Shown here: positions 1-7,914 of the stretch, piece after piece | Layout of the letters: each line of letters opens with the position of its first letter | Position numbering within the stretch: position 1 is the stretch's first letter | IMG/VR virus record: IMGVR_UViG_3300029095_000093 | Strand: one strand, 5' to 3' | Origin: a virus | Lineage: Duplodnaviria; Heunggongvirae; Uroviricota; Caudoviricetes | DNA: 7,914 nt | Notes under the pieces: generated by a model | The model's input: the letters and a program-made list of their open reading frames with translations, nothing else | Database searches by the model: none | Told to the model about the DNA's origin: nothing | Made by a program: the position numbers and the translations under genes

Positions 1-125
1 TGCTCATTACAGAAAAAATAACGTTCACCACCGACCTCTGTCAGATCGATTTCCCAGAGCACCACCTGGGCTGACTGAGTGAGGCGTGTCGTCTCATGAT
101 GTGTTTCCTGTGGAATATCCTGCAT
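1..125 (-). CDS. Minor tail protein L (lambda gpL-like), N-terminal 41 codons only; gene runs off the window at position 1
   Basis: Minus-strand ATG at 125-123, preceded by AGGAGG (plus 131-136) that overlaps the stop of the upstream gene. Translation MQDIPQETHHETTRLTQSAQVVLWEIDLTEVGGERYFFCNE matches my memory of the lambda gpL N-terminus (VVLWEIDLTEVGGERYFFCNE). Absent from the supplied ORF track because it is truncated. Confidence 0.8.
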   Translation of the reverse strand, partial: MQDIPQETHHETTRLTQSAQVVLWEIDLTEVGGERYFFCNE

Positions 126-134
126 CAGAGCCTC

Positions 135-464
135 CTATGCCACGACCTGTTCAAAATCTGCCGTTATGGTTACCCACAACGCCCCCACGCTTGCCGACCA
201 TTTACGACAAACCACCCTGATCGGCTTCCAGTCATAAGGTGGCGTCCACTGAAATGCGCGGACGCCACCGTGCCGTTCCAGAAAGGCTTTTAAAGATGGG
301 TGTTCACATTTACGAACACGTATCGTCACGCTGTAAGTCGACAACTGGTTATTCAGTCCCGCCGCACGACGCTGTTCATAACCATCGCCCAGCTTCACTG
401 TCACCACTTTCGGCTCTGATACCACATTCATATCCGGGCGCACTTTCCAGTGAAACGTCTCCAT
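135..464 (-). CDS. Minor tail protein M (lambda gpM-like), 109 aa
   Basis: ATG at 464-462, TAG stop at 137-135. Same length as lambda gpM and the same motif pattern (F-W-K-V-P, FGDGY-QR, TYSVT, FLE-HGG, WTPPY-W, C-KW, FEQVV). SD-like GTGGAG about 10 nt upstream. Immediately followed by the gpL start, as in lambda. Confidence 0.85.
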   Translation of the reverse strand: METFHWKVRPDMNVVSEPKVVTVKLGDGYEQRRAAGLNNQLSTYSVTIRVRKCEHPSLKAFLERHGGVRAFQWTPPYDWKPIRVVCRKWSASVGALWVTITADFEQVVA

Positions 465-2215
465 TACCGATATGCTCCACTTAACCGACCACCATCACGG
501 GCCTGCTGTTGCATAAAGTCCGCTGCCGCTTTTTTCCCAAGGTCATAAACCACCTTCAGGGCAGCAGGACCTATCTGCCCGTTCGTGCCATCGTTATTGA
601 TCTCGATGTTGTACTGCGGGGCAAACATCGCCATACCTGAACCACCAATACCAAGGCCATCACGACGGCAACGACGCCAGAATTTATAGGCATTATCAGT
701 GACCCCGTCTTCACCGCCGGAGTCCACCGCCATTGCCATCAGTCGCATTTGTTGAGAAGGATCGGAGGCCAGCGGCCAGCTTTTATGAAAAACATCCGTC
801 AGCAGGACATCCCAGTCTTCCGGATAACTGGCCGGATCAATTCGCTGGCTCTCCCCGTCGCTGTCACCGCGCAATGACTGCGTGATGTTGTAACGATCAA
901 TAATCCAGCGTTCGCCACGGCTGCCATAGCCCGTTACCTGAACCACAAAACGGCGATGACGTCCCGCCTGCACATCCACTGTCGCCACAAGGAAATTAAC
1001 GCCATCCGGCACACTGCGGGAAGGAACTGGCTCTGCCCGCTGCTCAAGCAGTTCACTTTTTCGTTGCTCCATGCTGGCGCGGGGAAGATAAGGTAATCCC
1101 CAGTCGGTATTGATAACCGTCTTGAGTGTTTCTTCACTTCCGGTTGTCTCGTATTCCTGTTCTGCAGTAAGCAGTTTGTAAACGAGTTGCGAGAGTGTCT
1201 GGTAAGCAGCTGCCGGACCCTCCATCCAGAATGACGCAATACGTGAGCGTCGGGGATCACCATAACGACTGCCATCCGCATTGATGGATTCACCATCCCG
1301 CAGCCAGACCCCACGTCCGTTCAGCTCACGTTTTTGTTCAGGCATAATCCGTCCTGAACAGGAAGGACACTGAATATAAGCCGCCTCACTTGCCAGCACG
1401 GGATCGGCAATATCACGGAAACCAGCAACCACATCGCCGCAGGGCTGAAAATACTCACCACAGTGTGGACAGGGCCAGTACCAGCGACGGCGATCGCCAC
1501 GGTTATAGAGCGACAGTATCCCAGTGGTTGGTGGAGCCTCATGCGGTGAAGTCCGTCGCCATTTCACATCCTTCACATCCCTGCCGGGGGAACTCTCCAC
1601 CAGCGTCATACCACTGGACATAAATGTTGTGGTACGTTTTGAGGCAAGAGAGAAAGCATCCCCCTCGCCATCAATATCTTCCGGAAAACGGTCATAATCC
1701 GTCAGCGCGACGCATTTATAATCTGATGAGGACATGATATTGACTGACGGCCAGCCGATTTTCAGGTAGTTGCCAGCAAGGAATGTTCTGTCATAAACGT
1801 TGTTGTCATTTTTGTTCGGACTCAGGCGACTGACCACTTCCGGGCTGACGCGAAACGTTCTGGCGAGTCGTTTTTTGGAGTGTTCGCGGGCTTTTTCCTC
1901 CGTCATCTGAATGATCAGCATATCCGCAGGGTCGCAAATCACGTTGTAAATCACCCAGCCGTCAATCAGGCCGATAGTCTTGCCGGTTCGTGCCGGGCCA
2001 ACAAATATCACTGCGTCGTATTCACGCGAGGCCAGGCAGTTCATCGGCTCAATAACATACGGTGCCACCAGCGGATCCCACGGGACTGAGTTCCCTGCCC
2101 CCATGGGCACCCGCATATACTGAGCAACGGCATCAGCAACCCGCATTCGTCTCGGTGCGCGAAGGATATAACCTGAATCGGTTCGTGCTGCCTTTGCGGT
2201 TTCCTGATTCAGCAT
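464..2215 (-). CDS. Terminase large subunit (GpA family), 583 aa; the C-terminal ~60 aa may derive from a different gene (see findings)
   Basis: ATG at 2215-2213 overlaps the TAA of the upstream small-subunit gene (TAATG coupling), with AGGAGGAG just upstream. Walker-A-like VFVGPARTGKT and a Cys/His cluster WYWPCPHCGEYF...CPSC resemble the lambda gpA ATPase and zinc motifs. Shorter than lambda gpA (641 aa as I recall); the stop overlaps the gpM start. Confidence 0.8.
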   Translation of the reverse strand: MLNQETAKAARTDSGYILRAPRRMRVADAVAQYMRVPMGAGNSVPWDPLVAPYVIEPMNCLASREYDAVIFVGPARTGKTIGLIDGWVIYNVICDPADMLIIQMTEEKAREHSKKRLARTFRVSPEVVSRLSPNKNDNNVYDRTFLAGNYLKIGWPSVNIMSSSDYKCVALTDYDRFPEDIDGEGDAFSLASKRTTTFMSSGMTLVESSPGRDVKDVKWRRTSPHEAPPTTGILSLYNRGDRRRWYWPCPHCGEYFQPCGDVVAGFRDIADPVLASEAAYIQCPSCSGRIMPEQKRELNGRGVWLRDGESINADGSRYGDPRRSRIASFWMEGPAAAYQTLSQLVYKLLTAEQEYETTGSEETLKTVINTDWGLPYLPRASMEQRKSELLEQRAEPVPSRSVPDGVNFLVATVDVQAGRHRRFVVQVTGYGSRGERWIIDRYNITQSLRGDSDGESQRIDPASYPEDWDVLLTDVFHKSWPLASDPSQQMRLMAMAVDSGGEDGVTDNAYKFWRRCRRDGLGIGGSGMAMFAPQYNIEINNDGTNGQIGPAALKVVYDLGKKAAADFMQQQARDGGRLSGAYR

Positions 2216-2706
2216 TACTCCTCCTGCTGTAATTCCTCCTCATCATCCGCACCTGCTTCGGTCACCCGCAGGGCTATCTGATCGCGCAGATCATCAATAA
2301 TGGACTGAACACGGCTCACAGCGGCAGGCTGCAGGCCGCAGTCACGTTCCAGAATATCCGGTAATGTCTCCAGCACCTGCACGACCGCTTTTGCCCAGAT
2401 GGCAAACTCCCGTCTGACATCACTGGCCGGAATGAGTTGTGCCGTTTCCTGTTCGAACTTAAGACGCTCACGTTCAGACTGATACCAGGCTTTGCGTTCA
2501 TGTGGATCCATTTCGCCCTCAGCAACCGGCGGTGGTAACCCCATAAATTCAGTCAGAATATCGGTCAACCGGTATAGCTTGAGTTTGTCATGTCCACCAG
2601 CGGGACGAATGTTTTTCAGTCTTGCCACGACAGTCTGGCGGTGCAGACCAGATAAAGCCGCCAGTTGATTAATATTCAGCACCAGGTTTTTCAACTCATG
2701 ATCCAT
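2215..2706 (-). CDS. Terminase small subunit (Nu1-like DNA-recognition subunit), 163 aa
   Basis: ATG at 2706-2704 with a strong SD GGAGGA (rc of 2711-2720). N-terminal HTH-like segment LNINQLAALSGLHRQTVVARL and an acidic C-terminus DDEEELQQEE. Position directly upstream of, and translationally coupled to, the large subunit. Resembles the Nu1-homolog proteins of E. coli cryptic prophages, from memory. Confidence 0.8.
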   Translation of the reverse strand: MDHELKNLVLNINQLAALSGLHRQTVVARLKNIRPAGGHDKLKLYRLTDILTEFMGLPPPVAEGEMDPHERKAWYQSERERLKFEQETAQLIPASDVRREFAIWAKAVVQVLETLPDILERDCGLQPAAVSRVQSIIDDLRDQIALRVTEAGADDEEELQQEE

Positions 2707-2760
2707 ATTTCCTCCGGAGAGCTTTAAACATGCATCGTGCGAACAACTTTAAGAAAACGC

Positions 2761-2795
2761 GTTCGATGTCGAACAAAAAACACTCAATTCGACAT
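2761..2795. repeat. Candidate cosB-type terminase-binding repeats: near-palindrome GTTCGAtgTCGAAC plus a further TTCGACAT copy, flanked by A-tracts
   Basis: Seen directly: GTTCGA (2761-2766) / TCGAAC (2769-2774) inverted repeat; ATGTCGAA (2766-2773) and TTCGACAT (2788-2795) are reverse-complementary copies about 15 bp apart. A-tracts (aacaaaaaac, caaaaaacaaa) lie between and beyond. Location between the cosN candidate and the small-terminase start is where lambda has R3/I1/R2/R1. Confidence 0.35.
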
Positions 2796-2880
2796 GCAAA
2801 AAACAAATAACCATTAATAATCAATAAGATGCAAAGATGATGGTGGCCAATAAAAATGCAAAAACTAGCCTTTTTCCGCG

Positions 2881-2892
2881 ACGCTCCCGCCC
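2881..2892 (-). other. Candidate cosN (cohesive-end site)
   Basis: Minus strand reads GGGCGGGAGCGT followed by CGCGG. Lambda's left end, from memory, is GGGCGGCGACCT followed by CGCGG, giving 8 of 12 identities with identical flanks. It lies about 175-185 nt upstream of the small-terminase ATG, close to the lambda cosN-to-Nu1 spacing. Confidence 0.35.
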
Positions 2893-3121
2893 CGTGGCAG
2901 GCCACCCCACCGGGAGGACCCGTCAGCCTGAAAGCCATGACGAACGTCTGATACAGCCCTTGCATAAATGGCATCGGGATAATCCAGAAAGGAATAGCAT
3001 CGACCCACAAGAATCTGTGTGAGTGTCCTGTTTCTTCCACCCCCGCACAGGACTGGTGAGCATGAGGGACAAACCCGCGAATCATTAGCGCGGTAAAAAC
3101 CCGGTGTGCATCGTTTTTGAT

Positions 3122-3186
3122 TATTCCCGCACACTCGCGCAGAAGGAGTTCCCCGTCGGGCTACGGTCATGGTTAATGCGGGAATA
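3122..3186. repeat. 9-bp perfect inverted repeat (TATTCCCGC ... GCGGGAATA) with a 47-nt spacer, inside a block resembling the lambda bor-upstream region
   Basis: Arms at 3122-3130 and 3178-3186, seen directly. The surrounding ~110 nt (AAACCCGGTGTGCATCGTTTTTGATTATTCCCGCACACTC...GTTAATGCGGGAATACA) closely matches what I recall upstream of lambda bor, where the arms read ATTCCCGGA / TCCGGGAAT. The difference is a paired substitution that keeps the stem intact. Confidence 0.5.
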
Positions 3187-3520
3187 CAGCGACGATACAG
3201 CGCATGATGTGTCAGGCTTGAATACCTTTATCCGTTAAAAGGGATATCAGTTAAGTTATCCCGTGTAGGGTATAAGCCATTATCAAAGCCACTCTGTAGG
3301 GAGTGGCTTTCGTAATGGCAATAAAAAAGCCCCGCGAATGCGAGGCTAAATCCAGGTATTTTTAATGACTGGCTCTTATCTCAACGCAGCCCCTTACCGC
3401 GCGCCAGATGCTCAATATCAAGCATCAGCAATGAGATGTTTAACCATGATTCACTCCAGAAGTGAGCACCACCCTGTCTACAGAGCCAGATGTGAAGGAT
3501 GATGAGTAAAATTATCGCTA

Positions 3521-3988
3521 TCATCGAAGGCATTGCGTCCTGATGTATTCCTGAAGCGTTCTCAGTGCTGTTTGGTCGCGGATAATTCCGTCCCGGATAC
3601 CGAGAACGTTTCGTCCAGCAACTGGAGAGAGTTCGATGGTGGCATCATTGCCCATGCCGGAGGCGCTGGAGGTTTCGGCTGAGGATGGCACAGGGCATTT
3701 TCCTTTGACGAACACCCGACCACCATTATCAAGCTTGCGCCGAAGAGCATCATTTTTAGCTTTCGCATCAGCTAACTCCTTCGTGTATTTAGCATCGAGT
3801 GCATCAGCAGCACGCTGGCGCTGCTGCATGTCAGTAATGGTGGCGGTCGCCTGCTTCAGCTCACTGACTTTTTTATCACGCTGTTCTTTATAGGCGATGG
3901 CGTTATCACGATAATGATTGACCGCCCACGACAGGCAGACGATGATGCAGATAACCAGAGCATAAATAATCGCGGCGACTCTGCTCAC
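3521..3988 (-). CDS. Rz i-spanin (inner-membrane spanin subunit), ~155 aa from a GTG start
   Basis: The ORF track starts at TTG 4003, but GTG at 3988-3986 gives [31 protein letters not shown]..., matching the lambda Rz N-terminus (MSRVTAIISALVIC...) and overlapping the endolysin stop (GTGA). N-terminal TMD, coiled-coil region ([21 protein letters not shown]) and C-terminal Cys. Confidence 0.85.
3562..3768 (-). CDS. Rz1 o-spanin (outer-membrane lipoprotein), 68 aa, fully embedded in Rz in the +1 frame
   Basis: ATG at 3768-3766. Signal peptide [19 protein letters not shown] with lipobox VVGC, then a proline-rich mature segment ([18 protein letters not shown]) with a second Cys. Nested arrangement as in lambda Rz/Rz1. 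Confidence 0.8.
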
Positions 3989-4518
3989 TGATCTATCCCC
4001 CAACAGGCTAATGCGCTTTCCTGGTCACGACGAATAACTTGCCCATAGCAGTTATTTGAACGTATGCGGCAATCGCGCCCACCATCTTTTATCCACCAAC
4101 GAATCGCCTCGCATGCCCCCTTACGATCACCGGCATTCAGCCGCTTATAAAACGTCGACGGGAAACACTTACCGGGGCCAATGTTATAGGGACAAAATGA
4201 CGCGATACCCGCTTTCTGGGGTTCGGTCAGCGGCACTTTAATATTGCGCTCCACCCATGCCAGCGCCTTATCCCGTTCAATGGCATTAACCTGGTCGCAT
4301 TTTTCCTTCGACAGCTTCATTCCCGGTATGACGGGCTTACCATCCACCATTGTGGCACCACGACAGATGGTCCATATACCGGAACCATCGCGGTATGCCG
4401 TAGTGTGGTTACCCTCTTTTTCATCCAGAAACTGGTCAAGTATTTGAGGAGCAGACGCGCCTGCAGCAATCAGCGCCAGAACAGCAGCTGACAGGCCGTA
4501 TTTGATTTTTGCGCTCAT
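3985..4518 (-). CDS. SAR endolysin (T4-lysozyme-like muramidase with signal-arrest-release N-terminus), 177 aa
   Basis: ATG at 4518-4516. N-terminal weakly hydrophobic Gly/Ala-rich SAR segment [17 protein letters not shown]. Catalytic E-x8-D-x5-T signature ([16 protein letters not shown]). Resembles the phage 21 R / Qin-prophage lysozyme family, from memory. Confidence 0.9.
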
Positions 4519-4573
4519 GGATATTTATCAGGCTGCTACCAATGAAAGATACTGGAAAGCCAACTGCAAAAAG

Positions 4574-4888
4574 CTAACAACCCGTAATCGAGTTATCAGA
4601 ACTGTTAATTTTTATGGTATACCGCGCCTTTGAACAGGGTCGCGTTTCTGGCAACAGCTCGTCCCCTTCACATAACCCGGCAGCAACATCCAGGAAGACC
4701 TGTCTGATGCTCCTTCTGGCTGCTGCCTCATAAAACTCCAGCGCGGCACCTTCAACACGGTCCAGCGAGATGTCCAGGTCAAAAATTTCACCGTCAAAGC
4801 GTTTTTTGTCCCGTAACGCTAAAGTTACCGTAACTTTATTCTCAAAATTGCGGATCCCTTTCACAATCAGTTCATAGTTTTGAGTCAT
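4574..4888 (-). CDS. Conserved hypothetical protein between holin and endolysin (DUF1327 / Qin YdfR-like), 104 aa
   Basis: ATG at 4888-4886, 4 nt after the holin stop, using an SD (GGAGAG) inside the holin 3' end. The N-terminal ~65 aa (MTQNYELIVKGIRNFENKVTVTLALRDKKRFDGEIFDLD...EGAALEFYEAAARRS) resemble the DUF1327 protein at the same position in the Qin lysis cassette, from memory. C-terminal half not recognised. Confidence 0.6.
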   Translation of the reverse strand: MTQNYELIVKGIRNFENKVTVTLALRDKKRFDGEIFDLDISLDRVEGAALEFYEAAARRSIRQVFLDVAAGLCEGDELLPETRPCSKARYTIKINSSDNSITGC

Positions 4889-4892
4889 TGAA

Positions 4893-5108
4893 TTACTCTC
4901 CCCGTGCAGCCTTACGCTTGTCTTCTTTAATCTTGAAATAAAGGTTTGTCAGATACGTCAGCAAGCCAAATACCAGACTACCCAGCACACCTATTGCCGC
5001 CCACTGTGAGGGCGTGACTTTATCGAGCAACTGTAAAAACCAGTACCCGGCACTACCTGCTGAGGTGCCATAGGCGACACCCGTTGTTAACTTATCCATG
5101 GATTTCAT
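4893..5108 (-). CDS. Class II holin, phage 21 S-like pinholin, 71 aa with dual-start motif (Met1/Met4)
   Basis: The track ORF starts upstream at 5171, but ATG at 5108-5106 has an SD (GAGGTGGGG) and gives [71 protein letters not shown], near-identical in pattern to S21 as I recall it. Two TMDs and a charged C-terminus; MKSM is the holin/antiholin dual start. Confidence 0.85.
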
Positions 5109-5141
5109 AACCCCACCTCGCAGATGCGGGTGCTGTGTAAT

Positions 5142-5169
5142 GGAAATAAAAAGGCCACCTGACGTGGCC
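5142..5169 (-). terminator. Rho-independent terminator just downstream of the methyltransferase gene (minus strand)
   Basis: Stem GGCCAC (5153-5158) / GTGGCC (5164-5169) with a 5-nt loop. On the minus strand the hairpin is followed by TTTTTATTTCC (rc of 5142-5152). Begins 7 nt after the methyltransferase stop and about 35 nt before the holin start. Confidence 0.6.
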
Positions 5170-5175
5170 ACCAGA

Positions 5176-6228
5176 TTATTTCCCCACCAGCTCGTTTATC
5201 TCTTTCACTGTCTGGTTAAACCGCTCTGACTCAAGCTCAACACCTAAGGCCCGACGCCCCAGCGCCATTGCTGCTTTTATTGTGGAACCGGATCCCATAA
5301 AAAAATCAGCAACCAGATCACCTGGTCGACTACTGGCATTGATTATTTGCCTGAGCATATCCGCCGGTTTCTCACACGGATGTTTCCCCGGGTAGAACTG
5401 AACGGGTTTATGCATCCAGACATCGGTATAAGGCACGGAGACTGATACGGAGAAATAGCGCCGGAGAGATTTAAACTCATCCAGCAATTCAGAATATTTG
5501 CGATTCAGTGAATCATAAGATGCCACCAGCTGGTGGTGTGGTTGTTCCAGTTGTTGTTCCTGAAACTTCTCTGCCGCTATACGGGAAAACAGTGCCTGTA
5601 ACTTCCGATAGTCAGCCTCATTCGGCAACTGCCACTGACTGGCACCAAACCAGTGGGAAACCATATTTTTCTTACCTGTGGCTTCGGCAATTTGTTTTGC
5701 CGTTATACCCAGTTCGGCACGAGCATCCCTGAAATACGATATCAGCGGTGCCATTATGTGCTGTTTGAGTTCCCTTTCTTTTGCCGCATAGCCGTCACTT
5801 TTGCCGCGATATGGCCCCTGGTAATGTTCAGCAAACAGAACGCGCTCTGTGGCAGGAAAATATGCACGCAGACTTTCTTTATTACACCCATTCCAACGTC
5901 CGGACGGCTTCGCCCAGATGATATGGTTAAGCACGTTGAAACGTTCACGCATCATGATCTCAATATCAGATGCCAGGCGATGCCCACAGAACAGGTAAAG
6001 GCTTCCGGCAGGTTTTAACACCCGCCAGAACTGGGTCAGACAGTGGTCCAGCCACTTAAGGTAATCTTCGTCCCCTTTCCACTGATTGTCCCAGCCGTTG
6101 GGTTTCACCTTGAAGTACGGCGGATCGGTAACAATCAGGTCAATGGAATCATCAGGCAGGGACTGAATAAAATGCAGGCAATCAGCGTTGATTAAATCAA
6201 CACTGTTTATTTTTACAGTATTTTTCAT
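5176..6228 (-). CDS. Orphan DNA methyltransferase, beta-class, probably N6-adenine, 350 aa
   Basis: ATG at 6228-6226, TAA at 5178-5176. Motif [12 protein letters not shown] near the N-terminus and motif [10 protein letters not shown] near the C-terminus (IV before I indicates beta class); DPPY rather than SPPY favours N6-adenine. HPCEKP motif as in YhdJ-type enzymes. A ~120 aa insert between the catalytic motifs contains an HTH-like stretch ([20 protein letters not shown]). No restriction endonuclease gene in the window. Confidence 0.85.
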
Positions 6229-6378
6229 GGATCAGTAAGCGTAACTCTGGTAGGCTCACTCTGCTTTTGCGCTAAAGCAGTGGGCCGTGGTTCGCTTGTG
6301 ACCAGTAAGCATGAGCGAATGGCTGGCAGGTGCTACCAACACCCACCAGCCGCCCATTTTCACAGCAGGAAACCGCCA

Positions 6379-6582
6379 TTACTGGCAGCGTCTGAATTTA
6401 TTCCCGTACCCGCCGTTATCCTTCGCCAGACCCGCCAGAACTAACTGAGTCAGTATTAACTGGCACCGGGCTTCGCTTACTCCGGTAGTTCTCGTCATCA
6501 TGCGTGGCGTTACCCACTTGTCAGCAGGTAAGAAATGAAGGACTGCGGCGGCGGTTTCTGTCATATCTTGCTGTTTTAGCAT
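6379..6582 (-). CDS. Small hypothetical protein, possible winged-helix DNA-binding regulator (~67 aa from the second ATG; track start at 6606 gives 75 aa)
   Basis: The first ATG (6606) has no SD; the ATG at 6582-6580 has AGAAGGGA 8-15 nt upstream. Sequence ...AAAVLHFLPADKWVTPRMMTRTTGVSEARCQLILTQLVLAGLAKDNGG has the spacing of a small wHTH (FaeA/PapI-like or MarR-like helix-turn-helix-wing). This is only a pattern-level resemblance. Confidence 0.45.
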   Translation of the reverse strand: MLKQQDMTETAAAVLHFLPADKWVTPRMMTRTTGVSEARCQLILTQLVLAGLAKDNGGYGNKFRRCQ

Positions 6583-6704
6583 GTCTTTTTCCCTTCTGGT
6601 TAACATGACATACCAATAACTCTTGTCTAAAAAGCCAGCAAGATAAAAAGTCAGTATTCACGACCACCAGCGTGTTTACTGTACTGCACCAAGTTTACAG
6701 GTAC

Positions 6705-6730
6705 AAAAAAAACCGCTCAGCGGCGGGTTT
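6705..6730 (-). terminator. Weak terminator-like element: short GC stem followed by a U8 tract on the minus strand
   Basis: Plus strand AAAAAAAACCGCTCAGCGGCGGGTTT. On the minus strand this is a CCGC/GCGG 4-bp stem with a 3-nt loop followed by eight T. The stem is short, so it is marginal. Sits in the divergent intergenic region between the small ORF and the lipoprotein gene. Confidence 0.3.
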
Positions 6731-6853
6731 AAGTTGTGTGGCGAAGTAACCACTCTTAACAGCATATTTGATTTTTTACGATTGTAAACGGTTGATTATT
6801 CATCTCCAATAAAAATAATTGTGTGGGTATACCCTTAGCAATGGATAAGAAAC

Positions 6854-7300
6854 ATGAATAAAATGACTGTACTATTACTTAGCGCAACTATCATTTCAGG
6901 TTGTACTTCTTCCGTACCATTGATAAAGAAAACTCAATCAGGAAAACCTGAGGGGGTTTATCAAAATACGACAAAAGATAAAGTCAAAGATGCCCTTGTG
7001 AATTACTGCAATAGTAGAGGGTTGATAATTTACAACGCGGATAACAGCAGTGTTATATGTGGTAAAGAACTGGAAGGCGGCTCTGCTGTTTTTGGACAAA
7101 TGTTAATCGGAAATGCCTATTCAACAACCCCGGTATCAAAAGTCAGATTTACTATCGCTCAAGTTAATAACGATACAAAAGTGTGGGCCGATATGTGGAT
7201 GGAAACTCAAATGGCAATGGGACAAGTACAACAAATGGCTATAACAGACAACGCAAGCAAAAACACTATCCAACAACGTCTTGATGAATTAAAACCTTAA
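6854..7300 (+). CDS. Predicted lipoprotein of unknown function, 148 aa, AT-rich moron on the strand opposite to all other phage genes
   Basis: ATG at 6854, TAA at 7298-7300. Signal peptide MNKMTVLLLSATIISGC with lipobox ISGC; Thr at +2 suggests outer-membrane sorting. Composition is visibly AT-rich compared with flanking genes (about 35-40% GC by eye, not computed). Weak SD. I do not recognise the mature sequence. Confidence 0.7.
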   Translation: MNKMTVLLLSATIISGCTSSVPLIKKTQSGKPEGVYQNTTKDKVKDALVNYCNSRGLIIYNADNSSVICGKELEGGSAVFGQMLIGNAYSTTPVSKVRFTIAQVNNDTKVWADMWMETQMAMGQVQQMAITDNASKNTIQQRLDELKP

Positions 7301-7342
7301 GTAAACTAATTAAATAAAATGGGGAGAATAAATCGACTCCCC
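7301..7342 (-). terminator. Intrinsic terminator between the convergent Q and lipoprotein genes (stronger for the minus-strand Q transcript)
   Basis: Stem GGGGAG (7321-7326) / CTCCCC (7337-7342) with a 10-nt loop. On the minus strand it is followed by ATTTTATTTAATT; on the plus strand by ACACATTAAA, which is not U-rich. Lies 43 nt after the Q stop and 21 nt after the lipoprotein stop. Confidence 0.55.
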
Positions 7343-7384
7343 ACACATTAAACTGATTCAATTACCCCCTCAATAAGAGGTCTT

Positions 7385-7750
7385 CTAACGATCCATCTCT
7401 AGCTCAATTTCTAACATCATTAACATGCCATCAACTACACCTTCAGCCTTTTGCAATAAACGCCCAACCCAGCAATCAGAACGCCCATGTTTACGGGCAA
7501 GCGCCATAAACGTCATACCACCTACATAATAATCCACTAATAAATCGTGCAAATCGCTGTTGTTCTTTTTCAGGCGAGCCATGCACCCACAAATGATCAT
7601 CGCGTCATCGTCACAACATTGCGGGCGGGATTTTACTTTTGAAGGGATTAGTCCTTTAAATCCTGCAGCAATAGACGACCAGGTGACATCCTCGTGATTA
7701 TTTGCCACCCATGCCCCCCAACGTTCAAGAACCATTTGAATATCACGCAT
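7385..7750 (-). CDS. Late-gene antitermination protein Q (small phage 82/21-type Q, DLP12 QuuD-like), ~121 aa
   Basis: The track ORF begins at TTG 7765; the first ATG is at 7750-7748, giving [64 protein letters not shown]..., which matches my memory of the DLP12 Q protein. Cys cluster CCDDD...CGC is consistent with a zinc-binding Q. TAG stop at 7387-7385. Confidence 0.8.
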
Positions 7751-7767
7751 CAACTTTCTCCACAAAA

Positions 7768-7914
7768 TCAGGCCAGCACGCCAATTGCCAGCGCACGATC
7801 GATAAAACGAAATATCAGCTCCAGTTGGGAGCCATACTTCTCTTCAAATGCCACGGTATCCGCATGCAGCTCGTCGTGATGCTTTCTGCACAAAGGCAAC
7901 ACAAAGAGGTCATG
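7768..7914 (-). CDS. C-terminal 48 codons of an upstream phage protein with a Cys/His motif (CRKHHDELH); continues beyond the window end
   Basis: This is the only open minus-strand frame through 7914-7771; TGA at 7770-7768, 17 nt before the Q start. Translation ...[48 protein letters not shown]. Possibly the gene that precedes Q in Nin-region-type prophages, but identity is unverified. Confidence 0.45.

Follow-up and report, generated by a model that had tools for sequence, protein, structure and literature searches.

A recent 10.3-kb deletion very probably fused the large terminase gene in frame to the end of the tape-measure gene in a lambdoid E. coli prophage

The window (the whole stretch of 7,914 nucleotides that we analysed) contains intact genes for Q, a DNA methyltransferase, holin, a DUF1327 protein, lysozyme, Rz/Rz1, TerS and the tail protein M, together with the start of the tail gene L (Table 1). 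Between TerS and M lies a single minus-strand open reading frame (ORF) that encodes 583 amino acids followed by a TAA stop. A cosN-like sequence lies ~175 bp upstream of the TerS gene; in context (2875–2896) it reads ACG/GGGCGGGAGCGT/CGCGG against ACG GGGCGGCGACCT CGCGG in lambda, and the element seems to have kept its packaging site. The mEp460 record begins at window ~2731, but we rejected this position as the cos site, since the record just happens to begin near TerS.

Table 1. Features of the fusion locus and of four other deletions of the same block; positions in the last four rows refer to loci in the genomes named
Feature	Position	Strand	Basis or description
Minor tail gene L, 5' part, leaves the window at its end	1..125	-	Mapping onto PhiR40_1 L; gene call on second contig
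Tail-tip assembly gene M, 109 aa, intact	135..464	-	Pfam Phage_min_tail, full length, E = 1e-39
Chimeric ORF TerL(1-522)::gpH(958-1018)	464..2215	-	ORF call, Pfam, PHROGs, PhiR40_1 protein alignment
H-derived part, last 61 codons (gpH 958-1018)	467..649	-	PHROGs, alignment, PDB sequence match
Deletion junction, 2-bp microhomology TA	649..650	-	Comparison with PhiR40_1 and SCU-484 prophage
TerL-derived part, codons 1-522	650..2215	-	Pfam; DNA homology to intact phages/prophages ends at window 649
TerS, intact (DUF1441, phrog_141)	2215..2706	-	Pfam, PHROGs; stop overlaps fusion start
cosN-like GGGCGGGAGCGT	2881..2892	-	By-eye comparison with left end of lambda
CAVP819 (USA) deletion	L004 9380-9700		TerL codon ~463 joined to last 20 nt of H at TA
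EC27 (China) deletion	L007		Remnant lengths and spacing identical to CAVP819
E1620 deletion	L003 9464-11207		900-bp internal TerL remnant beside 846-bp H remnant
TUM1887 deletion	L006 6288-8587		679-aa TerL ORF extends 45 nt into 306-bp H remnant, other frame

The methyltransferase is an N6/N4 enzyme of 350 amino acids (5176–6228, minus strand) encoded between Q and the holin gene of the late operon; PADLOC classes it as a type II methyltransferase (E = 5e-152), and no restriction partner is visible within the window. Between Q and the methylase gene, and opposite in direction to the late operon, is a 148-amino-acid ORF (6854–7300, plus strand) with a lipoprotein-type signal (…LLSATIISGC), located in an island of 37–38% GC compared with ~50% around it. 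The product belongs to PHROG 3152 (unknown function), is unmatched in Pfam and PADLOC and is conserved in phage PhiR40_1 and in a prophage of strain SCU-484; the gene looks like a moron. The spanin pair consists of Rz (3521–4003, minus strand) and Rz1 (3562–3768, minus strand; PF06085), the latter lying wholly within the former but in a different frame. Rz probably starts downstream of its listed TTG, since JGI calls a product of 155 amino acids. Approximately 100 bp between the DUF1327 and lysozyme genes (4533–4636) are unmatched in PhiR40_1, with flanks that are 98–99% identical, and form a small mosaic patch. Neither an Rfam scan nor a tRNA scan gave any hit in the window.

The 583-amino-acid protein is made of two parts. 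Pfam identifies a complete GpA ATPase domain (PF05876; amino acids 41–304, profile positions 2–247 of 247, E = 6e-72) and a partial GpA nuclease domain (PF20454; amino acids 326–519, profile positions 1–169 of 294), from which 125 of the 294 profile positions (~43%) are absent. In PHROGs, amino acids 1–517 are assigned to the large terminase family phrog_15, and amino acids 522–583 align with the extreme C termini of three tape-measure families: phrog_6747 (positions 331–390 of 390, E = 1e-34, matched by the last 60–62 amino acids), phrog_1716 (867–929 of 943) and phrog_24 (986–1056 of 1151). The protein as a whole is not a tape measure; full-length members have ~850–1,020 amino acids, of which the fusion has only the last 61 of 1,018. 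Alignment with PhiR40_1 resolves both parts to the residue. Residues 1–522 are identical to residues 1–522 of its 700-amino-acid TerL (522/522), and residues 523–583 are identical to residues 958–1018 of its tape-measure protein gpH (61/61). The H-derived part carries the conserved motif INNDGTNGQIGPAALK, common to lambda gpH. In a search of PDB sequences, the TerL part had no solved relative and the gpH tail alone was matched, to the lambda tape-measure protein (TMP).

The earlier note on this DNA, made from the letters alone, had remarked that the terminase is followed directly by gpM, that the ORF falls short of lambda gpA in length and that its last ~60 amino acids do not look terminase-like; it proposed that an in-frame deletion had brought terminase and the 3' part of the tape-measure gene together. 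All of this is supported by our comparisons. The downstream ORF is a full-length Phage_min_tail protein, and the fusion (583 amino acids) is shorter than both lambda gpA (641) and the intact homologue (700). On the minus strand the fusion ends in …GCA TAT CGG TAA TGG AGA CG, in which the last A of the TAA (466–464) is also the first base of the gpM ATG (464–462). This one-base overlap is the native arrangement of H and M in PhiR40_1 and has been kept in the window.

The phage records closest to the terminase/M region in megablast searches are PhiR40_1 (PV340560), PhiR55_1 and PhiR47_1 (99.3–99.5% identity) and mEp460 (96%). These phages and the SCU-484 prophage (NZ_CP051744) have 98–100% DNA identity to the window on both sides of the junction and share its gene order (Q, reverse-strand ORF, methylase, holin, DUF1327, lysozyme, Rz/Rz1, TerS, TerL…H, M, L). 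They carry a block of 10.27–10.29 kb, a 700-amino-acid TerL and a 1,018-amino-acid H; in the window, the block is absent and the 583-amino-acid chimera stands in place of both proteins. In PhiR40_1 the order is TerL, a 213-bp gene, portal, protease/scaffold (Nu3), two small connectors, Z, U, V, G, T, H, M and L; in SCU-484 the counterpart of the protease/scaffold gene bears the annotation ClpP-like protease/major capsid fusion. The SCU-484 prophage, which is adjacent to dusA, has the same arrangement and aligns with window positions 1–650 at 100% and with positions 649–7914 at 99.1%. More distantly, the TerL part is homologous to lambda gpA (27% identity, with the Walker A, D401-type and DxGG motifs conserved), and the last ~45 amino acids of the fusion are ~70% identical to the C terminus of lambda gpH. 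In lambda, gpA and gpH are separate proteins encoded ~8 kb apart, whereas here they are fused; the chimera has no equivalent of gpA past approximately residue 484 or of gpH before its last 61 residues.

Base-by-base comparison places the junction precisely. The TerL-side parent reads …CTTGGTA/AACG (in longer form …GATGGCCTTGGTA/AACGT…), the H-side parent reads …GCGGATA/TTGG (…GGCGGATA/TTGGTGGTTCAGG…) and the window reads …GATGGCCTTGGTATTGGTGGTTCAGG… across the join; the only bases common to both parents at this point are TA (2 bp). Because the A at window position 649 opens both codon 523 of TerL and codon 958 of H, the fusion is in frame. A breakpoint around plus coordinates 640–680 had been predicted, and it lies at 649/650. 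The missing DNA amounts to 10,285 bp relative to PhiR40_1 and ~10,273 bp relative to the SCU-484 prophage, in both of which the intact flanks are ~10.27–10.29 kb apart. The deletion has taken away 178 amino acids from the C terminus of TerL, the small gene in the W position, the portal gene, a ClpP-like protease/major capsid gene, both connector genes, Z, U, V, G and T, and 94% of H. The loss of the head-gene block, as the earlier note had it, is supported by the intact relatives, which carry that block between the same flanks. The deletion extends beyond what had been claimed, as the tail-shaft genes Z, U, V, G and T and most of H are also gone. With head and tail-shaft genes both lost, neither capsids nor tails could form.

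We searched for the junction in other genomes. The terminase/M region matched 52 of 50,697 phage records by megablast. Adjacency of terminase and M occurs in none of the 50,697 records, no intact terminase was found that aligns across the C terminus of the fusion, and all terminase matches end at the same base, window position 649. Among 5,426 complete E. coli genomes, matches to the right part start at position 649 and matches to the left part end at position 650, and the junction is present in none. A 39-mer and a 25-mer spanning the junction are absent from the scanned genome and metagenome contig collections, and the 39-mer is absent from the viral contig collection. A literature search for earlier terminase/tape-measure fusions found nothing specific. 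The exact 583-amino-acid protein is on record only in two JGI metagenome contigs, of 7,914 bp (equal in length to the window) and 7,828 bp (sample 3300029079). The second contig differs from window positions 1–7817 by seven mismatches and has an identical junction; both contigs end within phage genes (L and a DUF968 gene). Five of the seven differences fall within 160 bp (window 67–226) around the M/L boundary, close to the end of the contig, and both contigs end at nearly the same places, which would fit assembly breaks and consensus mixing where several prophages share sequence.

Four complete E. coli genomes (CAVP819, EC27, E1620 and TUM1887) have lost the same block through three other types of junction, leaving a terminase remnant beside an H remnant or M (Table 1). 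In CAVP819 the junction also has TA microhomology but leads to an immediate TAA stop. EC27 probably has the same junction, the sequence of which was read in CAVP819. In E1620 the 5' end of TerL has also been lost. The breakpoints in all four genomes differ from those in the window, and none has a comparable in-frame fusion. Thus, the TerL-to-H block has repeatedly been lost in this phage family through independent events. One of the four junction types is in frame, in line with the one in three expected by chance, which argues against selection for the fusion protein.

Many database entries named 'large terminase, partial', of 469–524 amino acids, are N-terminal fragments of the same TerL and fall into the 90% cluster of the chimera, which mixes truncations, fusions and fragments under one name. 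We considered whether these entries mark a hot spot for deletion or mosaicism at TerL codons ~470–525 and rejected this; the partial proteins end without foreign tails, as cuts at contig ends would leave them, and their length range is also set by the coverage rule of the clustering. They most likely stop there because their contigs end.

The flanks of the fusion are collinear with those of one functional phage, essential genes are gone and both breakpoints lie within genes, as expected of a defective prophage. We conclude, with a probability of about 0.9, that one recent deletion of ~10.3 kb made an accidental in-frame TerL::gpH fusion in a lambdoid E. coli prophage of the mEp460/PhiR40 type. 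The event would have been a single illegitimate recombination at the 2 bp (TA) common to both ends, with one endpoint within the TerL gene, past codon 522 of 700, and the other within the tape-measure gene H, ahead of codon 958 of 1,018. The two frames would have coincided by chance (prior of one in three), giving the 583-amino-acid chimera. The full-length arrangement is the working one, given that ΦR40.1, ΦR47.1 and ΦR55.1 serve as plaque-forming temperate relatives of lambda in bioRxiv 10.1101/2025.11.03.685801. The window shows a derived form, and a recent one, because its fusion ORF has not diverged from PhiR40_1 by a single amino acid.

What the chimera could still do can be judged from its alignment with lambda gpA, in which the cut falls at approximately residue 484 of 641. 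The Walker A motif (GPARTGKT, compared with 76-KSARVGYS-83 in lambda), the D401-type motif (TVDVQ, compared with GIDSQ) and the DxGG motif are all kept. In lambda gpA, K497 and E586 are important for nuclease function. The cut lies upstream of both, whose positions were verified in the lambda sequence; the region equivalent to that around K497 is missing from the fusion, and the NEAFD motif, which corresponds to lambda NEALD (E586), lies within the deleted 178 amino acids. By both Pfam and the gpA alignment, the fusion has no complete C-terminal endonuclease domain, and the C-terminal segment that binds the prohead (portal) is gone together with TerL residues 523–700. In large terminase subunits the ATPase resides in the N-terminal domain and the endonuclease in the C-terminal domain, and taking just five residues off the C-terminal end of lambda TerL (Aam42) is enough to abolish prohead docking (PMC4856287). 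With ~43% of the nuclease profile and the portal-docking C terminus gone, the chimera is very probably inactive as a terminase and would support neither DNA maturation nor packaging.

From its gene content, the element should be unable to build a virion, having lost the portal, capsid, tail-tube, chaperone and tape-measure genes. The earlier note had likewise expected a prophage that makes no capsids while keeping its lysis, packaging-recognition and tail-tip genes, and the genes in the window agree with this. We infer that, if the early region outside the window works, induction would lyse the cell without releasing virions. The late transcript probably still yields the chimera, as an accidental by-product rather than an evolved protein.

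Three other readings deserve to be weighed against a recent accidental deletion. The join could have been produced in assembly or library preparation from the terminase and tail-tip regions of an intact prophage, so that no such molecule exists in cells. The junction is known from two short metagenome contigs only and is missing from complete E. coli genomes and the other collections that we scanned, as an artefact would be. However, the parents share just 2 bp, and a k-mer graph could not make such a join without reads that span it, for which reason we rate this reading as very unlikely; the same junction also recurs in a second contig that differs by seven single-nucleotide polymorphisms, and comparable deletions are real in finished genomes. 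Alternatively, the element could be an evolved, helper-dependent, satellite-like entity, a streamlined lambdoid genome that obtains heads, tails and terminase from a co-resident relative. Its cos-like site, TerS, Q and lysis genes are intact, and packaging in trans by a helper from its own family is conceivable. However, both breakpoints lie within ORFs, and at the protein level the flanking parts show 100% identity to a functional phage, a sign of a very recent accident rather than of an adapted architecture. The 7.9 kb examined contain no genes of satellite type for capsid-size or packaging redirection and none of defence type, and the junction has not spread to any complete E. coli genome or phage record. 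By arithmetic, the remaining genome would be ~32 kb of ~42 kb, or roughly 76%, a size that does not exceed, and may fall short of, the minimum that a cos phage such as lambda can package. A satellite origin is highly improbable.

The in-frame chimera could also have acquired a function, either as a dominant-negative terminase subunit or as an ATPase recruited to the tail-tip complex by way of the C-terminal gpH segment. It keeps the full ATPase domain and the region expected to bind TerS, and its open frame has translational coupling to both neighbours. The part of gpH that is kept matches residues 800–851 of lambda gpH in PDB entry 8IYK and a 32-residue TMP fragment in 9E7M; the search output gives chain names only, and we take both entries to be lambda tail-tip structures. 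This segment of the tape measure may accordingly be the one that sits in the tip complex, and the chimera might conceivably dock onto complexes of M, L and J. Against an acquired function, one in three random deletions is expected to be in frame, the other junctions are out of frame or meet an immediate stop, neither divergence nor spread points to selection, and PADLOC finds no match of the chimera to a defence system. That the chimera is expressed from the late operon with an activity of its own, whether dominant-negative or carried into M/L/J tip complexes, is extremely doubtful, and that it has been recruited to a new function is hardly credible. The dominant-negative version is the more plausible of the two and, if real, would bind TerS and cos DNA without cutting or docking and would hamper packaging by superinfecting phages that use the same terminase.

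A recent accidental deletion is thus the reading that we retain. Inactivation of a prophage by internal deletion is a known kind of event, here in the form of ordinary prophage decay, and what is new is this allele. For annotation, the 583-amino-acid 'terminase' is a fusion pseudogene. Automated pipelines will name such chimeras 'large terminase', and the region may consequently be scored as a viable phage. For the biology of the family, the locus offers a clean and datable case of prophage inactivation, in which one microhomology-mediated step would have produced a fusion ORF without amino-acid divergence from a live phage and left a defective prophage for which lysis may still be possible and virions would not be.
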